Under the pieces are notes generated by a model. That model was not told the DNA's origin and did no database searches. It worked only from the letters and a program-made list of their open reading frames with translations. A DNA stretch of 62,966 bases from Clostridia bacterium (lineage in GTDB: Bacteria; Bacillota; Clostridia; Oscillospirales; CAG-272). The position numbers were made by a program, and so were the translations under genes. Location: assembly GCA_017412675.1 (NCBI GenBank), contig JAFPWV010000056.1:1-62966 (forward strand), written 5' to 3'. Of the stretch, positions 1 through 61,282 are shown one piece after another. Position 1 is the first letter of the stretch, and the number at the start of each line of letters is the position of its first letter.

Positions 1-1748
1 GAGAGCTTGTCGAGCTGCTCGTCGTAGCAGTGCGTGGTGTTGTAGCCTTCAGCGATGTAGGCCGGGTCGGTGGTGAAGTCGAAGGAGAAGTCATACGCAC
101 CGGAGGACCAGCCGGTCGCCAGGTTGAACATGTTGTAGGTCGGGACGGAGTAGTCGCCGCCAAGGCCGTACGCATCCTGACGATACATGTAGTTGAGCAG
201 TTCCGGGAAGGTCATGAGGTTCTGACGAATCTCAACGCCTGCCTGCTTGGTGCCTTCGCCGTTCGCGAGCATGGTCACGAGCAGGTCGGAGACGGAGTTG
301 CCTTCGGAGGAAGCCCAGTTGAGGAGAGCGGGCATCAGGGTGTCGCCGCCGACGGTCTTGCAGAAGGATTCATAGTTCGTCGCTTCCGCAGCGGAGACCT
401 TCTTGTAGCGGAGCTTGCCGGAGCCGTCCACATAGTCGGAGCCGTCTTCGTTGTACACGAAGCCGATGGACTTCAGGAGGGAGACCGCATCTTCCACGCT
501 GTAGTCGTAGGTGTCGATGTTGTCCGCGATGAACTTCTTGGAGTCTTCATACATGGAGAATGCCGTGCAGTACGGGCCGTGAACGACGGAGCCGTAGCCC
601 TGGCAGAAGGTGTTCGCGAATTCGTTTCTGTCGAGGAGGTGTGCAACCGCCTGACGGAATTCGGTGTACTGAGCGGGGCCGAGGTCGCACGCGAATGCGA
701 AGTAGCCGTAACCAGCTCTGTCATATTCGCAGAACTTGGAATCGATGGTGCCGTTGTCCATGAGGTCGTAGATCGCATTGACCTTATCGCCGTCCGCGAT
801 ACCGGAGTAGATCTGGATGCCGCCGGTGGCGATGGTGTCGATGACGGTGTCGTCTTCGGTCTTCACGATGACGAGCTTCTGGATGCCGGGCTTCTGGCCC
901 TCAAAGTTGCCGCAGTAGTTGGGGTTGACTTCGAGAACGATTTCGTTCGCGCTCTTGTCGAAGTTGACAAGGTTGTACGGGCCCGCGGTGACGCGGTTGG
1001 AGGTCGCATACTGAGCGGCGGTGATGTGATCGCCGACGGTGTCGATGGTGAATTCGGTACCGTTGTCGTTGACGAGGTAAGCGCCCTGGCCGTCATCCTT
1101 GACATGCCAGCCTTCGCCGAACCAGTAGGTGAGGTTCACAGCGCGGGCTCCGGCATAAGCGAGGTCGTAGTAGTAGGGCAGGTAGTTGTTTCCGTCGTAA
1201 CCGGTCTTGAGCTGGGTGAGGGAGAACTCATAGTCGCCGAGCAGACGGAGACCGGGCAGAGAGTTGGTCTCGCCGGTTCTGTAGGTGTTGCCGCCGGGGA
1301 TCATGTTGTAGCCGGCAGTGGTGGTGCCCATGTCAGCGCCGGTCTTGGACAGCGTGAAGAGGGACCAGGCAAGGAAGTTCTCGGCCTTGATCGGCTCGCC
1401 GTTGCTGAACACGAGGTTTTCCTTGATCTTGAAGGTGTAGGTGACGTTGCCGTCCGCATCTTCGGTTCTCTTGTAGCCGTTCTTCGCGACGACGGAGTCG
1501 TTGAGGACGTAGTCGCCGTTCTGGTTGGAAGTAACGGTCACGCAGTCATCGGTCAGGGTGATGACATCCTGGTCGGTGGCGTTGATGGAGCTGGTAAACG
1601 CGCCGTAAGCCCAGTCACCGTTCGCTTCGGTGTCCGTGCCGATGACGACCTGTCCAGCAGGCTTGGAGCTTCCGCATCCGGTGAGCGCCAGCGCGGAGAG
1701 CATGAGAACAGCCAGCACGAAGCTGAGTATTCTACTGTGCAGTTTCAT
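1..1748 (-). CDS. ABC transporter substrate-binding lipoprotein, family 5 (oligopeptide-type); runs off the left edge
   Basis: Not in the ORF track because it has no stop in the window. Begins MKLHSRILSFVLAVLMLSALALTGC (lipobox) after RBS GGAGG. Family-5 motifs: TYTFKIKENLVFSNGEPIKAENF, AGPYNL, FRQAVAHLLDR. Confidence 0.85.
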   Translation of the reverse strand, partial: MKLHSRILSFVLAVLMLSALALTGCGSSKPAGQVVIGTDTEANGDWAYGAFTSSINATDQDVITLTDDCVTVTSNQNGDYVLNDSVVAKNGYKRTEDADGNVTYTFKIKENLVFSNGEPIKAENFLAWSLFTLSKTGADMGTTTAGYNMIPGGNTYRTGETNSLPGLRLLGDYEFSLTQLKTGYDGNNYLPYYYDLAYAGARAVNLTYWFGEGWHVKDDGQGAYLVNDNGTEFTIDTVGDHITAAQYATSNRVTAGPYNLVNFDKSANEIVLEVNPNYCGNFEGQKPGIQKLVIVKTEDDTVIDTIATGGIQIYSGIADGDKVNAIYDLMDNGTIDSKFCEYDRAGYGYFAFACDLGPAQYTEFRQAVAHLLDRNEFANTFCQGYGSVVHGPYCTAFSMYEDSKKFIADNIDTYDYSVEDAVSLLKSIGFVYNEDGSDYVDGSGKLRYKKVSAAEATNYESFCKTVGGDTLMPALLNWASSEGNSVSDLLVTMLANGEGTKQAGVEIRQNLMTFPELLNYMYRQDAYGLGGDYSVPTYNMFNLATGWSSGAYDFSFDFTTDPAYIAEGYNTTHCYDEQLDKL

Positions 1749-1943
1749 GGTTTTTTCATCCTCCATAAGTTTTTTTGGACCGTCCGGTTTCCGTCCCGCA
1801 TTCCGCGAAGAACGGGAGGGGCGGTCCGAACCGGTGTATATCTGAAAGCGCATCCGCACATTGATGCGCCTTCATAACGGAATGAATACGGCATCCTCAT
1901 TTCCGCGGCGCGGAGAAGAAGGAATTGTATTACATTACAATGT

Positions 1944-2100: not shown

Positions 2101-4425
2101 TCAATGCTGCTCCGCGAGGTAGATCGACGCGCGGGACTGGATCTTTCCGGCGCACTCCTCCGCCGTGCCGACGCCGCCGAGGAACGCCGAGATCTCTTCG
2201 CGGATGATCATCCAGAGCGAGCGGTCCCAGCGCCCGACGAGCGAATCGCCCGCGCTGTCGAGGATGGCTTCCATCCGCGCCGTGTCCTCCGGTTCGGCGA
2301 CATACAGCGCGCCGGGGTATTCGAGATCCGCTTCGGTGAACTCCTCCGAAGAGCCCGGCATGTAGATCGGATAGGGATGGTCGCCGAAATACGCGATCTG
2401 AGCGTGTCCGTAATAGTCCTCGGCGGACCGGCGGAGGTCTTCGCGCAGGGAGGTGGAGATGCCGCCCCTTCCCTCTCCGCCGATGAAGGTCTCCCGGATG
2501 AAGTCCCACGCGAGATCGGGCTCCTCGCAGAAGGTCGTGATGACGAAGACCTCGGTCGGATCGATCTGAATGCCCGCGCCCGCTTCCCGAGTCGACGACG
2601 GGTAGCCGATCAGGACCCAGTCCTTCGTGTTGAAGAGCTTGAACGGGGCCAAGCCGAGCGCGTCCGGCTGGCATTTCGCAAGCGCGATCCGCCCGCTCAG
2701 CCGCATTTCGGCGCGTCCGTCGCTGTCAAGCTCCGCGAACGGCGAGGTCCGGCGGTATTCCTCCTCGGTCGGGAGCGCGTCGAGGAAGCGGAGGAACCGC
2801 ACGAAATCCGGGCTGTCGAAGGAGCAGGTCCCCGCCTCCTGGTCGACGAACGCGCGGTAGGCTCCCTGCGACAGGAATTCATCGCTGACACTCGAGCCCC
2901 GCGTGAGGTTCCAGAGCAGTTCCCGCCCTTCCCCGAGGCTTTCGGCAAAGTCGAGGAACTCCTCGATCGTCCAGCAGCCGCGCTCGCCGATCTCCCCGAG
3001 GATCTCCCGGGTGGAGACGAGCGTCGGGTAGATCGAGACGCCGTTCGTGATCCCCCACATCCCGCCCGCACCGTCGTCAAACATGCGCTTCACCGAGCCG
3101 AAGAGGTTGTCCGGGTTGACGCGCTCGTCTGCCTCGAGGTACGGCGTGAGGTCGCGGCAGAGGCCGTGCCGGAAGGCCTGCTCGATATACGATCCGACAC
3201 CCTCGCTGAGAAGGATGTCCGGCTTGTAGCTCCCGGTCACCATGTCGAGGGTCATCTTGCCGCCGGGCGCGGGGAAATCGATGTCCGGCGGGTCGCCCGA
3301 GCGGTCGTCGATCACGATGCGGTACCCCGGATGGGAGGCGTTGAAGATGCGCATCGCGTCCTTGATATTCATGCCGACCTCCGGATACCGTGTCGCAACG
3401 ACGATCTTCTTGACCGTCCGCAGATCGACGTCCGGGATCGGATCATGCACCACAAGCGAATCCTGGAGGATCGTCATGATGCTGGTCTGGACCGCGAATA
3501 CCCGTCCGTCGCCGACCGCGCAGACATGTTCGAGATTGCCGACGAGGCCGGAGTTGGTGAGATCGGCGATCGTATCCTTCTCCCACGAGCCCTTCTTCGC
3601 CTCGCGCACGCCGTAAACCCCCCCTTCGTTCGAGTAGAAGAAGAGGTAGTCCCCCGATCCGGGCGCCGCCGACGCACGGGAAGACGTATGGAAGACCTCA
3701 CCGAGCTTCCCGGTCTTCGCGTCGATCGGCACGGCGCTTCCGTTGTCGTAGTGGAGCAGGAATCGCCCGTCCGGGAGGGAGAACAGCCGATGCATGACGG
3801 GCTGGACCGATACGGTGTTTTTCACAAGGAGTTTTTCGTCGAAGAGCAGGAGCTGGGTCCCGTAGGAGATGCAGAACCGCCCCTCTGCGCCGACGGTAAA
3901 AGCCTGCGGCAGGCTCCCGTCCGTGACGAGCGCCGCGAGATCCGTGTCGTATGTCACGACCTCTCCGGACGCGGGATCGAAGCGGTTAAGGTAACTGCTC
4001 CCCACGCTGCCGTCCATCCGCACAGAGAGGTACCAGAGGATCCCGTCCCGAATGGATCCTGTCCGGTACCACGAGCCGTCCTCGCTTTCCGGGAGCGGGA
4101 CGGAGGAGAGGATGGTCTCCCCGTCCGTGCGGCAGAACGCGCGCCGGGCGACGGTCGTGATCTCCCCGTCCTCTCCGGCAGCCTCTTCATAGCGCAGCGT
4201 CGTGAAGCGGAGCTCGCCGCGCTCTTCGTCCCACTCGAAGGCCGTCATCGTATCCGGCACCGCGCCCTCTTCCAGTGTGATGGCCTGCGAATCCACAAGG
4301 TGCGTGAGGATATTCGGGTCCCCGGTCTGCTCCGGTTCCTCCGTCTTCTTCCCCTTCCCGCAGCCCGCGAGGAGGGCGATGGCGAGGAGGACGGCGAGGA
4401 GGCGCGTCAGGCGGTTATGTTTCAT
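2101..4425 (-). CDS. large lipoprotein: N-terminal beta-rich (propeller-like) region plus C-terminal extracellular solute-binding domain
   Basis: Lipobox LLAGC. C-half has SBP_bac_1-like motifs (FNASHPGYRI, PDIL, DLTPYLEAD, WTIEEF, AWDFIR, IQSRASIYLAEQ). ATG at 4425 is best spaced from AGGAG; the track starts at 4431. Confidence 0.75.
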   Translation of the reverse strand: MKHNRLTRLLAVLLAIALLAGCGKGKKTEEPEQTGDPNILTHLVDSQAITLEEGAVPDTMTAFEWDEERGELRFTTLRYEEAAGEDGEITTVARRAFCRTDGETILSSVPLPESEDGSWYRTGSIRDGILWYLSVRMDGSVGSSYLNRFDPASGEVVTYDTDLAALVTDGSLPQAFTVGAEGRFCISYGTQLLLFDEKLLVKNTVSVQPVMHRLFSLPDGRFLLHYDNGSAVPIDAKTGKLGEVFHTSSRASAAPGSGDYLFFYSNEGGVYGVREAKKGSWEKDTIADLTNSGLVGNLEHVCAVGDGRVFAVQTSIMTILQDSLVVHDPIPDVDLRTVKKIVVATRYPEVGMNIKDAMRIFNASHPGYRIVIDDRSGDPPDIDFPAPGGKMTLDMVTGSYKPDILLSEGVGSYIEQAFRHGLCRDLTPYLEADERVNPDNLFGSVKRMFDDGAGGMWGITNGVSIYPTLVSTREILGEIGERGCWTIEEFLDFAESLGEGRELLWNLTRGSSVSDEFLSQGAYRAFVDQEAGTCSFDSPDFVRFLRFLDALPTEEEYRRTSPFAELDSDGRAEMRLSGRIALAKCQPDALGLAPFKLFNTKDWVLIGYPSSTREAGAGIQIDPTEVFVITTFCEEPDLAWDFIRETFIGGEGRGGISTSLREDLRRSAEDYYGHAQIAYFGDHPYPIYMPGSSEEFTEADLEYPGALYVAEPEDTARMEAILDSAGDSLVGRWDRSLWMIIREEISAFLGGVGTAEECAGKIQSRASIYLAEQH

Positions 4426-4887: not shown

Positions 4888-5781
4888 ATGAAAAACACCG
4901 TCTTCACCGGAGCCGGCACCGCCCTCGTCACCCCACTCACGAAGGACGGGGTGGACTTCAAGACATTCGCCGATCTCATCGAATGGCAGATCTCCGAGGG
5001 GATCGACGCCCTCGTCATCGCCGGGACCACGGGTGAGGGCTCGACCCTCTCCGACGAGGAGCACCGGGCCGTCCTCAAGTTCGCCTCGGAGCAGATCCGC
5101 GGGCGCGTACCCGTCGTCGCCGGAACCGGCTCGAACGACACCGCCTACGCGATCGATCTGACGAAATACGCCTGCGAGGTCGGCTGCGACGCCATGCTCC
5201 TCGTCACGCCATATTACAACAAGGCGACCCAGCGGGGGCTCATCGAATCCTTCGCGGCCATCGCCGACGCCTCCTCGAAGCCCTGCATCCTCTACAACGT
5301 CCCTTCCCGCACCGGGTGCAATCTCCTGCCCCCCGCCCTCGCGGCGCTCTCGGATCACCCGAACATCGTCGGCGTCAAGGAGGCGAGCGGGAACATCTCC
5401 CAGATCGCCGAGGAAGCCGCGCTGTGCGGAGATCGGATCGACTTCTACTCCGGCAACGACGACCAGATCGTCCCGATCCTCTCCCTCGGGGGCGTCGGCG
5501 TGATCTCCGTCCTCTCGAACCTCCTCCCGAAGGAGACGTCCCGGATGTGCCATCTCTTCCTCGACGGCGACGTGAAGGCGGCCCGGGAGATGCAGCTGAA
5601 ATACCTGCCCCTCATCAACGCGCTCTTCTCGGAGGTCAACCCGATCCCCGTCAAGGCCGCGATGAGCCGCATGGGCTTCGGCGAGAACTGTCTGCGCCTC
5701 CCGCTCACCCCGATGGAGGAGGAGCACGAGGCCAAGCTCGTCGCCCTGATGCGGGAAGCCGGCGTGCCGATGGTGAGGTGA
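4888..5781 (+). CDS. dapA: 4-hydroxy-tetrahydrodipicolinate synthase
   Basis: GTTGE, PYYNK, LYNVPSRTG and GVKEASG motifs. Confidence 0.97.
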   Translation: MKNTVFTGAGTALVTPLTKDGVDFKTFADLIEWQISEGIDALVIAGTTGEGSTLSDEEHRAVLKFASEQIRGRVPVVAGTGSNDTAYAIDLTKYACEVGCDAMLLVTPYYNKATQRGLIESFAAIADASSKPCILYNVPSRTGCNLLPPALAALSDHPNIVGVKEASGNISQIAEEAALCGDRIDFYSGNDDQIVPILSLGGVGVISVLSNLLPKETSRMCHLFLDGDVKAAREMQLKYLPLINALFSEVNPIPVKAAMSRMGFGENCLRLPLTPMEEEHEAKLVALMREAGVPMVR

Positions 5782-5785
5782 CACG

Positions 5786-6553
5786 ATGAAGATTCTTGTG
5801 AGCGGCCTCGGCGGGCACATGGGCACGGAAGTCGCGCGCCTCGCCGGAGCCGGATACCGCGGGACCTCCCTCCTCGGCGGGATCGATCCGTTCGCGGAGG
5901 CCACGGCCGTCCCGTGCGCGAGATCCTTTGAGGAGGCTGAGACCCTCTTCGCCGCCGATCTCGCAGACCGGCCTTGCGTCGTCGATTTCAGCCATCACAG
6001 CGCGACCCCCGCCCTGCTCAATTTCGCCGTCAAGTATTCGCTCCCCGTCGTTCACGCCACCACCGGGCACACGGAGGAGGAGCTCGCCGCGATCCCCGGA
6101 GCCGCGGAAAAGATCCCGCTGTTCCGTTCGGCGAACATGTCCGTCGGCATCGCGCTCCTCGTCGAGCTGGCGAAGCAGACGGCGGCGGCGTTCCCGGACG
6201 CGGAGATCGAGATCGTCGAGCGGCACCATGACCGCAAGTTCGACGCGCCGAGCGGGACCGCCCTGATGCTGGCGGACGCCATCCGCGAGGTCCGGCCGTC
6301 GGCAACCCTGCATCCCGGACGCGCCGGCTACGGGAAGCGCACCCCGGACGAGATCGGCATCCACGCCATCCGCATGGGGAACATCGTCGGCGATCACGAA
6401 GTCCTCGTCGGCACGCAGAACCAGACCATCACCCTGAAGCATGAGGCCCACAGCCGCGCCCTGTTCGCGGAGGGAGCCCTCGCCGCGGCGGCATTTCTCG
6501 AGGGAAAGCCCGCGGGGCTCTACGATATGAACCGCATGATCCACGACCGGTGA
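5786..6553 (+). CDS. dapB: 4-hydroxy-tetrahydrodipicolinate reductase
   Basis: GLGGHMG, VDFS, ERHHDRKFDAPSGTA. Confidence 0.96.
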   Translation: MKILVSGLGGHMGTEVARLAGAGYRGTSLLGGIDPFAEATAVPCARSFEEAETLFAADLADRPCVVDFSHHSATPALLNFAVKYSLPVVHATTGHTEEELAAIPGAAEKIPLFRSANMSVGIALLVELAKQTAAAFPDAEIEIVERHHDRKFDAPSGTALMLADAIREVRPSATLHPGRAGYGKRTPDEIGIHAIRMGNIVGDHEVLVGTQNQTITLKHEAHSRALFAEGALAAAAFLEGKPAGLYDMNRMIHDR

Positions 6554-6577
6554 CCCCGGAGAAAGAAGAAAACGCCC

Positions 6578-7555
6578 ATGAAAATCGCCATTTACGGTTA
6601 CGGCAATCTCGGACGCGGCGTGGAGTGCGCCGTCACGGCAGCCCCGGACGCCTCCCTCGTCGGCATCTTCACCCGCCGCGACCCGTCCGCCGTCCATCCG
6701 CACACCGACGTCCCGGTTTATCCCGCGGACGATATTCTCACATACCGCGATCGGATCGACGTCCTCGTGATCTGCGGCGGGAGCGCGACCGATCTGCCCG
6801 CGATGACCCCCGCGCTGGCAAAGGATTTCAACGTCGTCGACAGCTTCGACACGCACGCCTCCATTCCGGAGCACTTTGCCCGGGTCGACAGCGCCGCGGC
6901 GGAGAACGGACACATCGCCCTCATCTCCGCGGGCTGGGATCCCGGCATGTTCTCGCTGAACCGCCTCTACGCGTCGGCGATCCTCCCGGACGGCGCGGAC
7001 TACACCTTCTGGGGACGCGGCGTGAGTCAGGGCCATTCCGACGCCATCCGCCGCATCGACGGGGTGAAGGACGCCCGGCAGTACACCGTTCCCGTCCCCG
7101 AAGCCCTCGCAAAGGTCCGGGCGGGCGAAAATCCGACCCTCACCGTCCGCGAGAAGCACACCCGCGAGTGCTACGTCGTCGCAGAGGAAGGCGCGGACCT
7201 CGGCCGCATCGAGCGCGAGATCAAGACCATGCCGCACTACTTCGACGAATACGACACGACCGTGAACTTCATCACGGAGGAAGAACTTCTCCGCGATCAC
7301 CGGGGCATCCCGCACGGCGGCAGCGTCATCCGCACCGGCAAGACCGGCTGGAACGGCGAGAACCGGCACGTCATCGAATATTCCCTGAAGCTCGACTCGA
7401 ACCCCGAATTCACGGCGTCCGTCCTCGTCGCCTTCGCCCGCGCGATCTTCAAGATGCACAGCCGCGGCGTCACGGGCTGCAAGACGGTCTTCGACATCGC
7501 CCCCGCGGATCTCTCCCCGCTCTCCCCCGAAGAGCTCCGCGCGAAGATGCTCTGA
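6578..7555 (+). CDS. ddh: meso-diaminopimelate dehydrogenase
   Basis: GYGNLG, GWDPG, TFWGRGVSQGHSDA, NPEFTASVL. Confidence 0.95.
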   Translation: MKIAIYGYGNLGRGVECAVTAAPDASLVGIFTRRDPSAVHPHTDVPVYPADDILTYRDRIDVLVICGGSATDLPAMTPALAKDFNVVDSFDTHASIPEHFARVDSAAAENGHIALISAGWDPGMFSLNRLYASAILPDGADYTFWGRGVSQGHSDAIRRIDGVKDARQYTVPVPEALAKVRAGENPTLTVREKHTRECYVVAEEGADLGRIEREIKTMPHYFDEYDTTVNFITEEELLRDHRGIPHGGSVIRTGKTGWNGENRHVIEYSLKLDSNPEFTASVLVAFARAIFKMHSRGVTGCKTVFDIAPADLSPLSPEELRAKML

Positions 7556-27804: not shown

Positions 27805-28329
27805 TTACTTCCGGCGTCCGAAGCCCAGTTTTTTGCGCAGTTTGACGATGTAGAGAGAGATGCACAGGGTCATCGTGATGTCGTAGAGGATGAAGAAGAG
27901 CGTCCCCATGCCGACGGTGATCCAGTTCAGCGCAAAATAGTCGTCCCCGGCCATGAAAACGTGTTCGGCGAGCACCACGCACACGAGGAGCATCGTGTCG
28001 AGGAAGGAGATCTTCACGGGCCAGGCGAAAAGGGGCCGGAGCCGCTCGAAATGCAGCTTCATGATCGGGTAGACGGCGGCGAAGAGGATGTATTCGATCG
28101 CGTAGAGCTTCGAGGGCAGCAAGAGGAGCGCGAGCACGCCCGTCGCCGCCGCGTAGATCCACGCCGTCTTTTCCCCGGTCTCGACCACGAGAAGCATGGT
28201 CATGAGGGAGCAGACCACGAGGATCGAAAGATCGAGAAGCGTCATCCCGCCGATCCAGAGGAAGACGAGGCAGAGCGCGGCGAATACGCCGCAGAGCGCG
28301 ATTTTCCGCGTCAGGGATTTGTCGGACAT
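27805..28329 (-). CDS. integral membrane hypothetical protein (about 5 TM)
   Basis: RBS GGAGG, hydrophobic helices, basic C-terminus. Confidence 0.8.
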   Translation of the reverse strand: MSDKSLTRKIALCGVFAALCLVFLWIGGMTLLDLSILVVCSLMTMLLVVETGEKTAWIYAAATGVLALLLLPSKLYAIEYILFAAVYPIMKLHFERLRPLFAWPVKISFLDTMLLVCVVLAEHVFMAGDDYFALNWITVGMGTLFFILYDITMTLCISLYIVKLRKKLGFGRRK

Positions 28330-28354
28330 GATGCCTCCATGTAGGATGTTCGGT

Positions 28355-28978
28355 TCAGCAGCACCGGATGAGGTCGCCGCCCATGCATTCGCAGCAGGTG
28401 TCGCAGCAGATCAGGGTCGAGCACGTCCCGCAGAGATCGCAGTCGCCCGCGCCGGTATTCGTGCGGTAGACGCTGCCGTAGTCCGCGCCGCGCCGCTGCA
28501 TCCGCATTTTCGCCTCGCGGTATTCCTCGTTCTGAGGGTCGAGGTAGCACGCGATCTCGATATAGCGCATCGCGTCGTAGTACTGCCCCGCGTAGGAGAG
28601 GAGACAGCCCATGAGATAGTTCCATTCCGCGCCGCGGTCCGCCGGGGGGGTGGAATCGATGATGAGTTTGGCGTCCGCGTAATTGCCTCTGGCGATGAGC
28701 TCGCGGACCTACTCGAAGGAGGTCGTGCCCGCCGACGTGTAGCTCGAGTATGAGGACTGCGTGCCGCCGGAGAACTGGGGACCGCCGCCCGCACGTTCCT
28801 TCTGGATCGCGTCATAGGCTTCATTGATCTCCTTCATGATCTCCTCGTACCCCGCTGCTTGCGCCTGACCGGCGTAGTTGTCGGGGTGCCACTTCCGGGC
28901 GAGGTTGCGGTAGGCGCGCTTGACCTCCTCGTCCGAGGCGCTGCGGGGGATGCCGAGCACCTGATAGGGATCTTTCAT
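28355..28978 (-). CDS. J-domain + TPR-like + Cys-rich-tail protein (207 codons), interrupted by an in-frame TAG at codon 90 (recoded/read-through or pseudogene)
   Basis: J-domain DPYQVLG..KWHPD. The same frame continues after the TAG (28709-28711) as VRELIARGNYADAKLIID..AEWNYLMG..LDPQNEEY..CCDTCCECMGGDLIRCC. The track splits it into two ORFs. Confidence 0.8.
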
Positions 28979-29877
28979 AACCGTTCCTTTCTCCCGTGCG
29001 AGCTCTCCGCTTTGCGGCCGTCGAGAACACGCCCGAGGGATGCCGGGAGTCCGAGATAGATGATATTCTTGACGATCGGGGTGAGGACGTGCGCGGGATC
29101 GAGCTCCTCCGCCGCCTCCCCGAGTTCTTCGAGTCCGATGGGCGCCGACGCCGCGAGGCTCTCCTTCACGATCGGCGAGAGGCGGCCGTTCTCGAGCGCG
29201 AGGGGACCCCAGCCGGCCGAGAGCGGATTGTACCGTCCGCGCCGCACGTCGTCCGCGAGGTCATCCGCCGCGTCGCAGAGATAGACGAACTTCCCAGTCG
29301 CCGTGCCGATCCGCCGGGCGAGCTCCGCGCATGCGCCGCTGAGACCGAGGGAGAAGACGAAGCCGAGCAGATCTCCGAAGAGGGAGACCGTTTCGTCGAG
29401 CGAGGGACAGCCCTCCCGCTCCTTCTGTGCGAGGCGGTCGAGAAACCGTCCGATCTCCCCGTCGGTGTCCGGCGGCAGGAAGTTTACCGCGCGGCGGGCC
29501 ATCGAGGCGGTGAAGGGCTTTGCCGAGACCGCCCTCAGGCGGGTGAAGCCGTGCTCGTCCGCGAGGTCGTCGTCGGTCTTTGCGTCGGCAAGTGCGGCCG
29601 AGAGCGCAGCTGAGAAGGTCAGGACGGGATCGGCCTCCGCCGTCAGACGCCGGTGGGTGGGATGCGCGGGGCACCGCATGGGGACGAACGAGGGCTCGAC
29701 GCCTTCGAGGATGCTCCGCACGGCGGCGAAAAAGGTGAAGTCGTAGGAGAGCGTGAGGCGGGAGAGCTGGCCCGTGGTGCGTCCCATCGCGCGGCAGAGT
29801 CCGCAGTAGAGGGCGCGGTACCGCTCCGCCTCGGAAACCTTGAGCTCCGCTGTGAGCGGCCTGACGTATCCGAACAT
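28975..29877 (-). CDS. DUF5685-like protein with two Asp-rich motifs
   Basis: MFGYVRP..ELKV..YCGLC..LSYD N-terminus; KTDDDLADE and DAADDLADD..YNP motifs. Confidence 0.8.
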   Translation of the reverse strand: MFGYVRPLTAELKVSEAERYRALYCGLCRAMGRTTGQLSRLTLSYDFTFFAAVRSILEGVEPSFVPMRCPAHPTHRRLTAEADPVLTFSAALSAALADAKTDDDLADEHGFTRLRAVSAKPFTASMARRAVNFLPPDTDGEIGRFLDRLAQKEREGCPSLDETVSLFGDLLGFVFSLGLSGACAELARRIGTATGKFVYLCDAADDLADDVRRGRYNPLSAGWGPLALENGRLSPIVKESLAASAPIGLEELGEAAEELDPAHVLTPIVKNIIYLGLPASLGRVLDGRKAESSHGRKERL

Positions 29878-38371: not shown

Positions 38372-39109
38372 TTACTCTGTTTGCCCGCCGGGGCCGTCAT
38401 CGCATCGCGCCGCCTCGAGCAGTCTTTCGAGCCGGTGGCGCATCCCGGACTTCGAGACCGGCGGATCGGAGAGCTTCCCGAGGTCCTCGAGCGTGAGCTG
38501 GGGATTGGCCTCCCGCGCCTCCGCCGCCGCGCGCACCTCCGCCGGGAGACGGTCGTACCGTCCCGACGCCCGGAGCTTCGCCGCCGCATGGGCGACCTTT
38601 TCCGCCGCCGCGAGCTGCTTCGCAATGTTCGCCGTGTCGAAATTCACCTGCCGGTTGACGTTCCCGCGGAATTCCCGCTCGATCTTCACGTTCATGAAGT
38701 CGAACGCCTCGCCCGTCGCGCCGATGAACGCGAGGAAGTCCCCGATGGTCTCCGCCGCGCGCAGGGTGAGCACGGGCCTGCCCCGCCGATGCGCCTCGCC
38801 GAAGAAGAAGCCGCATTCCGCGAGGATCTGCGCCGCGGTACGGGCAAACTCCCCGTCGTGAAAGGCGAGGTCGAGCTGATAGGACTTCGCGGGATCCGAG
38901 ACCGAGCCCCAGCGGAGAAAAAGGGTGCGCAGCAAAACGCCGCGGCACCCCTCGCACCGGCACCTTCTGAAAACCTCTTCGAGAGCGGCGGCCGCATGGT
39001 CCTCGTCCCCGAGCGCCGCGCAGTCATCCGCCGTGTGCCGGCAGCATTTCTTTTTGATCTCCGCTTCCGCGAGCGTGGTTTTTACTTTCTGCGAAAAGGA
39101 AGGTTCCAT
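38372..39109 (-). CDS. whiA: WhiA (shortened N-terminal region)
   Basis: SFSQKVK start, GSVSDPAKSYQL, VNRQVNFDTANI, C-terminal HTH PPVSKSGMRHRL. Confidence 0.88.
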   Translation of the reverse strand: MEPSFSQKVKTTLAEAEIKKKCCRHTADDCAALGDEDHAAAALEEVFRRCRCEGCRGVLLRTLFLRWGSVSDPAKSYQLDLAFHDGEFARTAAQILAECGFFFGEAHRRGRPVLTLRAAETIGDFLAFIGATGEAFDFMNVKIEREFRGNVNRQVNFDTANIAKQLAAAEKVAHAAAKLRASGRYDRLPAEVRAAAEAREANPQLTLEDLGKLSDPPVSKSGMRHRLERLLEAARCDDGPGGQTE

Positions 39110-57631: not shown

Positions 57632-59173
57632 TCAGAGCAGCGGGGCGATGAGATCGAGCGCGGCGCGGAAGAGCTGGGTGAGGAGCCGCGGCTTCTTCGC
57701 CTCGACGGGCTCGCTCGCTTCGATCAGCGCGGTGAAGTCCCGCTTCACGTCCGGGAGGCAGTCGGGCTTGTACATCCAGAGGCCGCACTCGAAGTGCAGG
57801 TAGAGGCTCCGGTAGTCGAGGTTGACGCTCCCGACGACCGCGTATTCGTCGTCGACGAGGAAGCCCTTCGCGTGGACGAAGCCGGGCTTGTATTCGTAGA
57901 TCTTCACGCCGTTCGCGACGAGGTTGGGATAGTAGGATTTGGTGGTCTGGTTGATGAGGATCTTGTCCGGGACGCCGGGGGTGACGATCCGCACGTCGAC
58001 GCCGCACCGGGCCGCGTGGATCAGCGCCTGCTCCAGCCGTTCGTCGACGATAAGATAGGGCGTGGTGATCCATACATAGCGCTTGGCGTTTTCGATGAGG
58101 CCGAGGTAGACGTTTTCTCCGACGGGTTCGCCGTCGAGCGGGCTGTCGGTATAGGGCTGGACATAGCCGCCCCCGTCGATGCCGTCGAGCGCGCCGGGCA
58201 GCGGTTCGTAGGCGGAATAGTCGCCGACCTCGTCGGTCTTCGTGCCGCAGAGGTAGTCCCACATCGTGAGGAACATGACGGCGAAGCTCCACGAGGCTTC
58301 CCCGCGCACCATGACGGCGGTGTCCTTCCAGTAGCCGCACCGCACCTCGGTATTGATGTATTCGTCCGCGAGGTTGATGCCCCCGGTGAACGAGGTGACG
58401 CCGTCGATCACGCAGATCTTGCGGTGGTCGCGGTTGTTCTGGCGGGCGAAGAGGAGGGGGATGAACCGCTGGAAGATGCGGCAGTCGATCCCCTCCCGGC
58501 GGAGCTTTTCGTCGAAATTGCCGGGGATGGCGAGCGCGCTGCCGATATCGTCGTAGACGACGCGCACGTCGACGCCCGCCCGGACTTTTTCGATGAGGAT
58601 CTCATGCACGGCGTCCCACATCTCGCCCTCGCCGATGATGAAGTATTCGAGGAAGATGTAGCGCTCGGCTTTTCTCAGTTCTTCGAGCAGGACGGGGAAC
58701 ATCGCCTCGCCGCTCTCGAAATAGCGGGTCTCGCAGTGCTTCACGGGCGGGCAGAAGGACGTGGTCTTGATGTAGCGCGCCTGACGGGCTGCCGTCGGAT
58801 CCTCCGCTTCGAGATCCCGGAGCGCGCAGCTCTCCCGCGCCGTGCCCGCTCTCGCCGCCTCGCTCATGAAGCGCATTTTCCCGAGCGTCCGCTTGGAGGC
58901 GCGCTTCCCGCCGAAAATGAGGTAGAGCGCGACGCCGAAGACGGGGAAGGTAAAGGCGACGACGATCCAGCAGAGCTTATACGACATGCTCCGGCTGTTT
59001 TTCATGAGGTAGAGGACGAAAATGAAATCGAGGAGCGCCGTCGCGGCGGAAAAGACGTAATAGAAACGGGTGAACTGGACGGCGATCAGAAAGATGAGGA
59101 AGAGCTGAATGACGATGAGCGGCCAGACGATGGCGGCGCGGCTCGTCGCGATGCGTTTGAGCTTTTTTTTCAT
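57632..59173 (-). CDS. cls: cardiolipin synthase
   Basis: N-terminal TMs; two HKD motifs (HRKICVID, HAKGFLVD); start MKKKLK after GGAG. Confidence 0.94.
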   Translation of the reverse strand: MKKKLKRIATSRAAIVWPLIVIQLFLIFLIAVQFTRFYYVFSAATALLDFIFVLYLMKNSRSMSYKLCWIVVAFTFPVFGVALYLIFGGKRASKRTLGKMRFMSEAARAGTARESCALRDLEAEDPTAARQARYIKTTSFCPPVKHCETRYFESGEAMFPVLLEELRKAERYIFLEYFIIGEGEMWDAVHEILIEKVRAGVDVRVVYDDIGSALAIPGNFDEKLRREGIDCRIFQRFIPLLFARQNNRDHRKICVIDGVTSFTGGINLADEYINTEVRCGYWKDTAVMVRGEASWSFAVMFLTMWDYLCGTKTDEVGDYSAYEPLPGALDGIDGGGYVQPYTDSPLDGEPVGENVYLGLIENAKRYVWITTPYLIVDERLEQALIHAARCGVDVRIVTPGVPDKILINQTTKSYYPNLVANGVKIYEYKPGFVHAKGFLVDDEYAVVGSVNLDYRSLYLHFECGLWMYKPDCLPDVKRDFTALIEASEPVEAKKPRLLTQLFRAALDLIAPLL

Positions 59174-59220
59174 AGAGTCTCCTGAGCTGAACATGGAAAA
59201 ACAAGGGCGGCTCAGGATAT

Positions 59221-59337: not shown

Positions 59338-59567
59338 TTCCGACGGTCGGACATGCGTCCTTCTGACGGTCGGACGTGCGGCATTCTGGCGGTCGGACGT
59401 GCGTCCTTCAGACGGTCGGATGTGCGTCCTTCTGACGGTCGGACGTGCGTCCTTCCGACGGTCGGACGTGCGTCCTTCAGACGGTCGGACATGCGTCCTT
59501 CAGACGGTCGGACATGCGTCCTTCAGACGGTCGGACGTGCGGCCTTCAGACGGTCGGACGTGCGGCC
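59338..59567. repeat. tandem array of ten 23-bp units (consensus TTCHGACGGTCGGACRTGCGKCC), each with an internal palindrome
   Basis: Ten contiguous units with no spacers; TCCGAC-G-GTCGGA dyad in the unit; followed by an AT-rich tract at 59568-59606. Confidence 0.95.
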
Positions 59568-59710: not shown

Positions 59711-61219
59711 TCACAAGATGATGCAGATCAGCCCCTGGCTGCCTTCGTTGATGATCTTCGAGAGGGTCTCGCCGAATTTCTGGCGGGCGTCCTCGGGGAT
59801 ATGGCCGAGCTTCGCGTGGAGACCGTCGTTCACGAGCTCGTAGAGGCTCCGGCCGAACATGTTCGACTGCCAGAGGCTCGCGGGATCGCTCTCGAACTCC
59901 TCCATGAGGTAATTGACCATCTCCTCGGACTGCTCCTCCGTTCCGACGATCGGGTTGATCTCCGCCCCGATCTCTGCGCGGATCATGTGGATCGACGGTG
60001 CGGACGCCCTCAGCCGCACGCCGTAGCTCCCCGCCTGCTTCATGATCTGCGGCTCCTCCAGCGTGAGGTCCCCGGCCTCCGGCATGACGATCCCGTACCC
60101 GCGCTCGTTCACCGCGGCGATGGCGTCCCGGTAGCGGTCGTACTCCCGCTTCGTCTCGGACAGGCGGTTCAGGGCGCCGAGCAGCTCCTCCTCGTCCTTC
60201 ATGGGGATCCCCGTCATCTCGGAGATCGTCGCATAATAGAGACTGTCCGGCAGGGTCACCGTCAGCGTCGCAGAACCCCGTCCGGCATCCGTTTCGGTCA
60301 CCTCGACCCGGGCCTCGGCGGGATCCGATCCCCCGGCCGCCACGGTCTTCGCGATCCCCTCTCCCAGCGACTCGGCGAACGCGCCCCGGATATCGGAGAG
60401 CCGCTTCATCTTCTTCGACGCCGCCGTCACCGCCTCCCGCAGTCCGACGGTCAGCCGGTGGTCGGGCGGCAGGATCCCGGTCCACGCGGGCAGGATGATG
60501 TCCGCCTCCTTGGCCGGGAATTCGCCGAGCAGCATCCCGAGAATGTGCCAGATATCCTCCGCGTCGAGATCGAGGCAGTTCACCAAGGCGACCGGCGCGC
60601 CGTACTTCTCCTCGAGACGTTCGGCCAGGCGCACCGCTTCCGGCGTCTCGGGGCGGGCGGAATTGAGGATGACGGCGTAGGGCTTGCCGAGCTCGGACAG
60701 CTCCGCCGCGATCCGCTCCTCCGCGCCGACGTAGTTCTCCCGGGGGAGGTCCCCGATCGTGCCGTCCGTCGTGACGAGCATCCCGACGGTCGCGTGCTCG
60801 GCGATGACCTTGTGCGTCCCCTCCTCGGCGGCCTCCTCGAACGGGACGGGCGCGGGATGCCAGGGCGTGTTCACCATGCGCGCCTCCCCGTCCTCGGTCC
60901 CGCCCATCGCCTCCGGGATCATGTAGCCGACGCAGTCGACCATCTTGACGCAGAGCCCGACGCCGTCGATGTCGACGCGGACCCCCTCGTCCGGGATGAA
61001 CTTCGGTTCGGTCGTCATGACCGTTCTTCCCCCGGCGGACTGCGGCAGCTCGTCGCGCGCTCTCGCCCGATCGGCCTCGTCGGTAATGTTCGGCAGGACG
61101 ACGGACTCCATGAACCGCTTGATGAAGGTGCTCTTCCCCGTCCTCACGGGTCCGACCACGCCGATGTAAACGTCTCCGTGCGTCCGCTCCGCGATATCGC
61201 GATAAATCGAATCAGTCAA
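59711..61219 (-). CDS. spoIVA: stage IV sporulation protein A
   Basis: IYRDIAERT.GDVYIGVVGPVRTGKSTFIKRFM, TTEPKF, C-terminal GLICIIL; TTG start after GGAGG. Confidence 0.97.
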   Translation of the reverse strand: MTDSIYRDIAERTHGDVYIGVVGPVRTGKSTFIKRFMESVVLPNITDEADRARARDELPQSAGGRTVMTTEPKFIPDEGVRVDIDGVGLCVKMVDCVGYMIPEAMGGTEDGEARMVNTPWHPAPVPFEEAAEEGTHKVIAEHATVGMLVTTDGTIGDLPRENYVGAEERIAAELSELGKPYAVILNSARPETPEAVRLAERLEEKYGAPVALVNCLDLDAEDIWHILGMLLGEFPAKEADIILPAWTGILPPDHRLTVGLREAVTAASKKMKRLSDIRGAFAESLGEGIAKTVAAGGSDPAEARVEVTETDAGRGSATLTVTLPDSLYYATISEMTGIPMKDEEELLGALNRLSETKREYDRYRDAIAAVNERGYGIVMPEAGDLTLEEPQIMKQAGSYGVRLRASAPSIHMIRAEIGAEINPIVGTEEQSEEMVNYLMEEFESDPASLWQSNMFGRSLYELVNDGLHAKLGHIPEDARQKFGETLSKIINEGSQGLICIIL

Positions 61220-61253
61220 AACAAAAACCTCCGTGTGCTTTCCTGTGCGGTAC

Positions 61254-61282
61254 AGCTTATGCACGCGGAGGTTTGAATATGC
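61254..61282 (-). promoter_or_regulatory. sigma-E type promoter of spoIVA
   Basis: GCATATT-14-CATAAGCT matches the sigma-E consensus (TCATATT-14-CATAcanT). Confidence 0.7.

Follow-up and report, generated by a model that had tools for sequence, protein, structure and literature searches.

In the survey of Shulgina and Eddy (PMC8629427), all known bacterial code changes reassign UGA, and in-frame stops in pseudogenes give rise to false stop-codon inferences. A 2026 preprint holds that sense readings of TAA and TAG need both tRNA and phylogenetic support (10.64898/2026.04.02.715157). Code 15, in which TAG means Gln, has been described in gut phages (10.1101/2022.01.06.475225), and bacterial pyrrolysine (Pyl), in the account given in 10.1101/2024.09.30.615893, is confined to a serine dehydratase and methylamine methyltransferases. 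The gene considered here, which is interrupted by a TAG codon, lies in a window of 62,966 nt (the whole stretch of DNA that was analyzed). As in code 15 phages, the TAG stands where the closest relatives have Gln, and TAG terminators are absent from the window; unlike those phages, the window consists of chromosomal housekeeping DNA with one in-frame TAG rather than many, and no suppressor tRNA is encoded in it. As in pyrrolysine decoding, whether by bacterial Pyl users or under the archaeal "Code 34," an in-frame TAG sits in an intact gene and TAG terminators are little used. Here, however, the gene encodes a J-domain protein, the site is a variable polar residue (Glu, Asp, Gln, Lys or Arg), there is no PYLIS-like structure, and the Pfam matches in the window include no Pyl gene. 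With an amber nonsense mutation, or a young pseudogene, the locus agrees on all points tested: a CAG-to-TAG transition, an intact remainder and TAG terminators in relatives.

Class C (type III) J-domain proteins consist of a J domain joined to unrelated partner domains, and eukaryotes have TPR-containing J proteins. The product of the interrupted gene, too, has an N-terminal J domain with an HPD tripeptide followed by a TPR-like helical domain; it differs from the class in its distinctive Cys-rich tail (...CCDTCCECMGGDLIRCC) and in the pairing of its gene with a DUF5685 gene. DnaJ proper (class A) is characterized by a G/F region, a CxxCxGxG zinc finger and C-terminal client-binding domains, which this protein of only 207 residues lacks. 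HPD-bearing J domains are expected to dock on DnaK/Hsp70 and to stimulate its ATPase. A search of the literature found no functional study of the DUF5685/J-TPR-Cys family; DUF5685 is named in a single paper among those covered.

The Interrupted Gene and Its Product

The features of the locus and of the rest of the window are collected in Table 1. Translation of the minus-strand frame 28978..28352 yields 89 residues, a stop, 117 residues and a second stop. The plus strand reads cta at the interruption, i.e., TAG on the coding strand, and the terminal stop of the J gene is TGA (28355-28357); a reading of TAG as X gives a product of 207 residues. An in-frame TAG at codon 90 of an otherwise intact gene, noticed earlier in a sequence-only reading of the window, is thus confirmed on the minus strand, and translation, Pfam and a structural model together bear out its description of 117 further codons of TPR-like helices and a Cys-rich tail leading to a TGA. 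The 85-codon ORF at 28355-28612, within the part that follows the TAG, has a GC3 of 0.91, similar to that of real genes.

Table 1. Positions, strands and particulars of the features discussed in the text
Feature	Position	Strand	Particulars
Whole interrupted J-domain co-chaperone-like gene	28355..28978	-	207 codons + TGA; translation, Pfam, homologs, AlphaFold model
In-frame TAG, codon 90	28709..28711	-	Start of the first TPR-like helix, right after the invariant GTTSF
89-codon product predicted under the standard code (J domain and linker only)	28712..28978	-	ORF list, Pfam
117 open codons after the TAG (TPR-like domain, Cys-rich tail) + TGA	28355..28708	-	ORF list, translation
DUF5685 gene, upstream of the J gene	28975..29877	-	Pfam PF18937, E = 4e-56; TGA stop and J gene ATG overlap as ATGA
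174-aa hydrophobic protein, downstream of the J gene	27805..28329	-	Starts 25 nt past the J gene stop
Lysine riboswitch RF00168	4636-4819	+	68.4 bits; upstream of dapA-dapB-diaminopimelate dehydrogenase genes, 4888-7555
WhiA homolog, 245 aa only	38372-39109	-	LAGLIDADG-like and HTH domains matched, N-terminal WhiA domain unmatched
Tandem array of a 23-bp unit (TTCAGACGGTCGGACGTGCGTCC)	59338-59564		9.9 copies, 91% match

Ahead of the true start of the J gene (28978) stands GGGAGAAAGGAA. On the 3' side of the TAG, no in-frame ATG, GTG or TTG occurs before the ATG of codon 123 (28612), which falls within the TPR-like domain, and inspection of the sequence on its 5' side found no Shine-Dalgarno-like purine run; the earlier remark that the downstream fragment has no obvious ribosome-binding site therefore holds. 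The TAG site itself lies outside any homopolymer or repeat.

The J domain (residues 3-61) is recognized by the Pfam DnaJ family PF00226 (E = 1.7e-16, 60.5 bits vs a cut-off of 27.8), and its HPD tripeptide, H31-P32-D33, is invariant or near-invariant across alignments. A Gly/Ser-rich linker follows, then the TPR-like helical domain from residue ~88 to 166, which draws weak Pfam matches to TPR_2 and TPR_19 over residues 94-150, and finally the Cys-rich tail. The NCBIfam DnaJ equivalog models match residues 2-80 only and reach 34-58 bits, with cut-offs that range from 338 to 619 bits; because they cover just the J domain and stay below cut-off, the protein is assigned to the class C J-domain proteins and not to DnaJ.

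An AlphaFold model was built on P0002, an intact homolog, together with 37 relatives, and has a mean pLDDT of 69.9. It comprises a helical J domain (1-63), a Gly/Ser linker (65-85) that is unmodeled, a confidently predicted helical repeat domain (helices 89-167, pLDDT ~90) and a Cys-rich tail (169-208) at low confidence. The interrupted codon corresponds to P0002 residue 91, which the model places in the first helix of the repeat domain. When the model was compared with the PDB using Foldseek, the J domain matched 6rzy_A (target TM 0.82), and the idealized TPR 1na3_A was matched with a target TM of 0.73 over 77 columns and an E of 0.09; no match reached E <= 0.001, because the model is multi-domain.

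Homologs and Gene Neighborhood

The read-through protein has 7619 database homologs, the best 120 of which are mostly single proteins of ~200-215 aa. Those of the 120 that carry a name are called "J domain-containing protein" or "molecular chaperone DnaJ," and their source is a metagenome bin of Clostridia or Oscillospiraceae. A search of species-genome contigs returned at least 80 loci (L001-L080), in which the J gene was located by tblastn; the best is 71% identical, the source genome is not among the loci listed, and most come from gut bins, of animal or human origin, labeled Oscillospiraceae, "Ruminococcus" or Clostridia.

In each of the 80 listed loci the J gene aligns, free of internal stops, from residue 1-3 to at least residue 205. 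Opposite the TAG stands GAA in 14, GAG in 12, GAT in 12, CAG in nine, AAG in six and GAC in five, with others making up the remainder, and none of the 80 has a stop codon there. Among the best 120 of the 7619 database homologs, the residue at the site is Glu in 67, Gln in 21, Lys in four, Asp and Ser in three each, Arg in two and another residue in three, while 17 were unmatched by the motif used. The closest listed homologs, P0002 (96% identical), P0012 and P0014, all have Gln there, within FEQVR or FQQVR against FE*VR here. The alignment to homologs that the sequence-only reading had proposed gives Gln in the nearest proteins listed, and the relatives carry a sense codon in an uninterrupted gene in 80 of 80 listed loci.

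The part of the protein that follows the TAG is identical to P0002 at 114 of 117 residues and keeps every alignment-invariant column; the part that precedes it carries four substitutions in 89 residues and one indel. As a side observation, P0012 is near-identical to P0002 over its first ~122 residues and then diverges sharply from the close group, and looks like a product of chimeric metagenomic assembly or of recombination.

Shorter proteins were also considered. Among the best 120 of 370 short homologs (48-156 aa), none ends within 10 residues past GTTSF. The exact 89-aa product, at 100% identity, is absent among the listed proteins of 48-156 aa, where the best match is 84% identical over 69% of the query. 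A query with the C-terminal 117 aa retrieved mostly full-length proteins and contig-end fragments, plus P0243. This last protein, of 117 aa and 69% identical, is encoded on a metagenomic contig of 1725 bp and starts exactly one residue after the TAG site. It may reflect either the choice of a start by the gene caller or, in another lineage, a second case of interruption close to this site or at it; any stop or frameshift in the linker, which is free of start codons, or again a choice by the caller, would yield an ORF of this type.

The neighborhood of the J gene is conserved. In 78 of the 80 listed loci it has a DUF5685 homolog just upstream, within 3 kb, the median offset being 889 bases. The hydrophobic 174-aa protein encoded downstream has no Pfam or NCBIfam match and, judged by eye from its sequence, is a putative multi-pass membrane protein; its homolog adjoins the J gene in 48 of the 80. 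YicC-RemA-Gmk often come next after the module formed by the DUF5685, J and hydrophobic-protein genes (27805-29877, minus strand). The DUF5685/J-TPR-Cys gene pair may perhaps be the more interesting object at this locus.

Stop Codon Usage in the Window and Its Relatives

The 56 ORFs called in the window amount to 55 genes after both halves of the J gene are joined; a gene at 3..1859 (minus strand) that runs off the window, its stop unseen, is outside the 55. These 55 genes end in TGA (41) or TAA (14) and never in TAG, and the only other stop is the one internal TAG. Examination of the intergenic gaps by hand bore out this set of genes. An earlier count of 41 TGA, 15 TAA and no TAG among 56 genes was right about the zero, while the exact totals are 41/14/0 of 55.

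The absence of TAG terminators has to be judged against a baseline, which was taken from genes called in the 80 listed loci with codon models pooled by GC bin. Their 1151 stops comprise 619 TAA, 459 TGA and 73 TAG, a TAG share of 6.3% that is flat across GC bins (5.6, 6.5, 6.5, 7.5, and 6.8%); a variant of the ORF caller gave a similar share in the relatives (75/1107, 6.8%). At 6.3%, the probability of no TAG among 55 terminators is 0.027 under a plain binomial and 0.13 under a beta-binomial fitted to the between-genome spread of the loci. These values replace the earlier estimates of ~0.003 and ~0.06 for 0/56, which assumed TAG shares of 10 and 5%, respectively. Relatives, and not an assumed share of 5-10%, have to supply the baseline for TAG stops.

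Many relatives are as poor in TAG as the window. Half of the listed loci (40/80) have no TAG stop at all, as do 14 of the 38 listed loci with at least 15 genes; the 12 closest loci listed use TAG in 5 of 149 stops, and three high-GC relatives combined (L001, L005 and L049) in 0 of 59. At the same time, 8 of the 80 listed relatives terminate the J gene itself with TAG, directly after the conserved ...CC, and TAG is plainly a working terminator in the genomes of this gene family.

Gene calling affects these counts. A caller self-trained on each locus gave TAG in 128 of 950 stops (13.5%) and was rejected owing to antisense calls in short loci; in L001, for example, a gene was called at 2858-3730 on the minus strand over the plus-strand J gene. 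TAG trinucleotides are unevenly distributed in the window, with 319 on the plus strand vs 86 on the minus strand, where most of the genes lie. Antisense frames are consequently rich in TAG, and naive ORF callers that choose them inflate the count of TAG stops. A GC3-filtered list of frames with in-frame TAGs proved unusable for its part, being dominated by antisense frames of real genes. The first callers also missed PP2C phosphatase, TlyA-like, zinc-peptidase and RpoZ-like genes, because ORFs extended on the 5' side into their neighbors.

Other In-Frame TAGs and Signals of Recoding

The TAG of the J gene is the single in-frame TAG in ~18,900 codons of the 55 genes of the window, none of which is otherwise split by TAG. 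When the window and the listed loci were taken together, 74 calls ended in TAG, and six of them run on in frame, uninterrupted by a stop, into a further called ORF. Five of the six, all in relatives, have the next start 3-12 nt past the TAG and are thus adjacent genes rather than split ones; the J gene of the window is the only one of these pairs with a 96-nt, start-free continuation after the TAG.

ARAGORN found no tRNA gene in the 62,966 nt, and an Rfam scan of the window returned the lysine riboswitch only. The listed Pfam family names for 51 window proteins include no release factor, no Pyl gene and no methylamine methyltransferase. A 129-nt segment that surrounds the TAG and extends beyond it shows no folding advantage over shuffled sequences (z = +0.65; 148 of 200 shuffles equal or exceed it), i.e., no stable RNA structure was detected downstream of the TAG in this segment.

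Origin of the TAG

The codon preferences of the window point to how the TAG may have arisen. Gln is encoded by CAG 375 times and by CAA eight times in window genes, so Gln at the site would be CAG, one C>T transition from TAG. Among the single-base nonsense changes possible in window genes, 60% lead to TAG with equal weights and 64% with a fourfold weight for transitions; an accidental stop that matches the codon not used as a terminator is hence expected. As in other nonsense-mutated genes, the homologs are uninterrupted and the stop is one base away from the ancestral codon, and the lack of decay downstream of the TAG means that the event is either recent or artefactual. The suggestion that a mutation or a sequencing error is an equally simple explanation was sound as to the explanation; "equally" undersold it, as Gln in the homologs, CAG usage and the ~60% of nonsense changes that give TAG favor it by a wide margin.

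Evidence suggests that what interrupts the gene is probably a premature amber stop of the ordinary kind, read under the standard bacterial code and created in the organism by a real single-base change. An ancestral CAG (Gln) codon would have become TAG by a single C>T substitution (G>A at plus-strand position 28711), and translation would now stop after codon 89, leaving a fragment made of the J domain and the linker that lacks the specificity domains. The TPR-like domain and the Cys-rich tail would make the protein specific for a partner or a location, probably in concert with the upstream DUF5685 protein, and the truncated product would represent a recent loss-of-function (or truncated) allele. 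We infer the presence of the TAG in the living population, and not just in the assembly, and likewise the function of the protein. Trace near-cognate read-through occurs at any amber codon, and read-through here would be at most at that level.

The foremost rival to a real mutation is that the TAG stems from an error in base calling, consensus or assembly, or from a minority variant that became fixed in a metagenome consensus, and that the real gene has CAG and is intact. This is a serious though rather unlikely possibility. In its favor are a lone substitution with no other lesion and a perfectly conserved downstream part; the window may itself come from a metagenome, as every close relative found is either a metagenome-assembled genome or a short metagenomic contig, and no listed database protein of 48-156 aa is the exact 89-aa product. 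Substitution errors are, however, rare in consensus assemblies, the site is not in a homopolymer or repeat, and the assembly appears clean, with no sign of damage in any other gene of the window.

A different kind of explanation would have the cell read the TAG as an amino acid, either Gln, through a suppressor tRNA-CUA or a code-15-like change, or pyrrolysine, with the full 207-aa protein as the product and TAG purged from terminators. The zero of 55 terminators (P = 0.027 in the binomial) is in its favor, Gln in the nearest listed relatives is what a TAG=Gln code predicts, and the 117 preserved codons of the intact downstream frame fit read-through as well as they fit a very recent mutation. 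Yet a lone in-frame TAG in 55 genes, a window free of tRNA genes and Pfam matches that lack Pyl and methylamine-methyltransferase families all speak against decoding, as do relatives that use TAG and are equally poor in it, the P of 0.13 once the spread between genomes is allowed for, and the 43 of 51 scanned window proteins that, translated under code 11, have Pfam matches, mostly over their full length. Decoding of TAG as an amino acid is thus very improbable, and the earlier proposal of TAG decoding, be it throughout the genome or at this site, is unsupported by the other genes of the window, by the TAG-poor relatives, or by any tRNA or RNA structure in the window. There is an equally slender chance that the organism or its lineage reads TAG as Gln usefully, by means of a suppressor tRNA-CUA that is chromosomal or borne by a prophage, which would be an early-stage TAG=Gln code in a free-living bacterium; the gene would go on yielding its full-length protein while terminators gradually lost TAG. 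P0243, if it does mark another interruption nearby in a different organism, would also count against an ordinary mutation. If true, such recoding would be a TAG-to-Gln code in a bacterial chromosome, as against the UGA-only reassignments of the Shulgina and Eddy survey (PMC8629427).

Programmed, site-specific read-through, which would supply both a J-domain-only and a full-length isoform, is just as hard to credit as amino acid decoding. The downstream frame is intact and conserved, and the stop coincides with a domain boundary in the model, where the first TPR-like helix begins; against this, the RNA around and after the TAG folds no better than its shuffles, none of the 80 listed relatives has a stop at the site, and none of the best 120 short homologs ends within 10 residues past GTTSF. 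The arrangement is therefore unconserved, unlike a programmed device, and the earlier idea of 89- and 207-aa isoforms made by read-through lacks both a conserved stop and a downstream RNA element. Least probable of all, and by any measure extremely unlikely, is a functional split in which the downstream part is made separately from its own start. P0243 does correspond to the C-terminal part alone, but the first in-frame start here lies inside the TPR-like domain with no ribosome-binding site, and the other C-terminal-only matches fetched, mostly from contigs shorter than 3 kb, start at the conserved internal MKEINEAY, begin without Met (P0008, a partial protein) or have an unrelated N-terminus.

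A recent amber mutation, the reading preferred here, makes the locus a useful negative example: one nonsense mutation, combined with the normal avoidance of TAG terminators in a lineage, can mimic amber recoding in a short window. Its consequence for annotation is modest, i.e., an interrupted or pseudo J-domain gene under table 11.

Other Features of the Window

The window is ordinary chromosomal DNA, not phage. The Pfam matches among its proteins represent for the most part full-length housekeeping genes and include DapA/DapB, MetY/MetA-type enzymes, RsgA, a PknB-type kinase, RlmN, RsmB, Fmt, Def, PriA, Gmk, RemA, YicC, DnaE, WhiA, MurB, TyrRS, RecN, ArgR, NAD kinase, XseAB, NusB, TrmO, SecA and SpoIVA. 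The tandem array sits in a 516-bp gap between a cardiolipin-synthase-like gene (57632-59194) and spoIVA (59711-61264). The WhiA homolog begins 7 nt past the murB stop, which leaves no room for a longer form.
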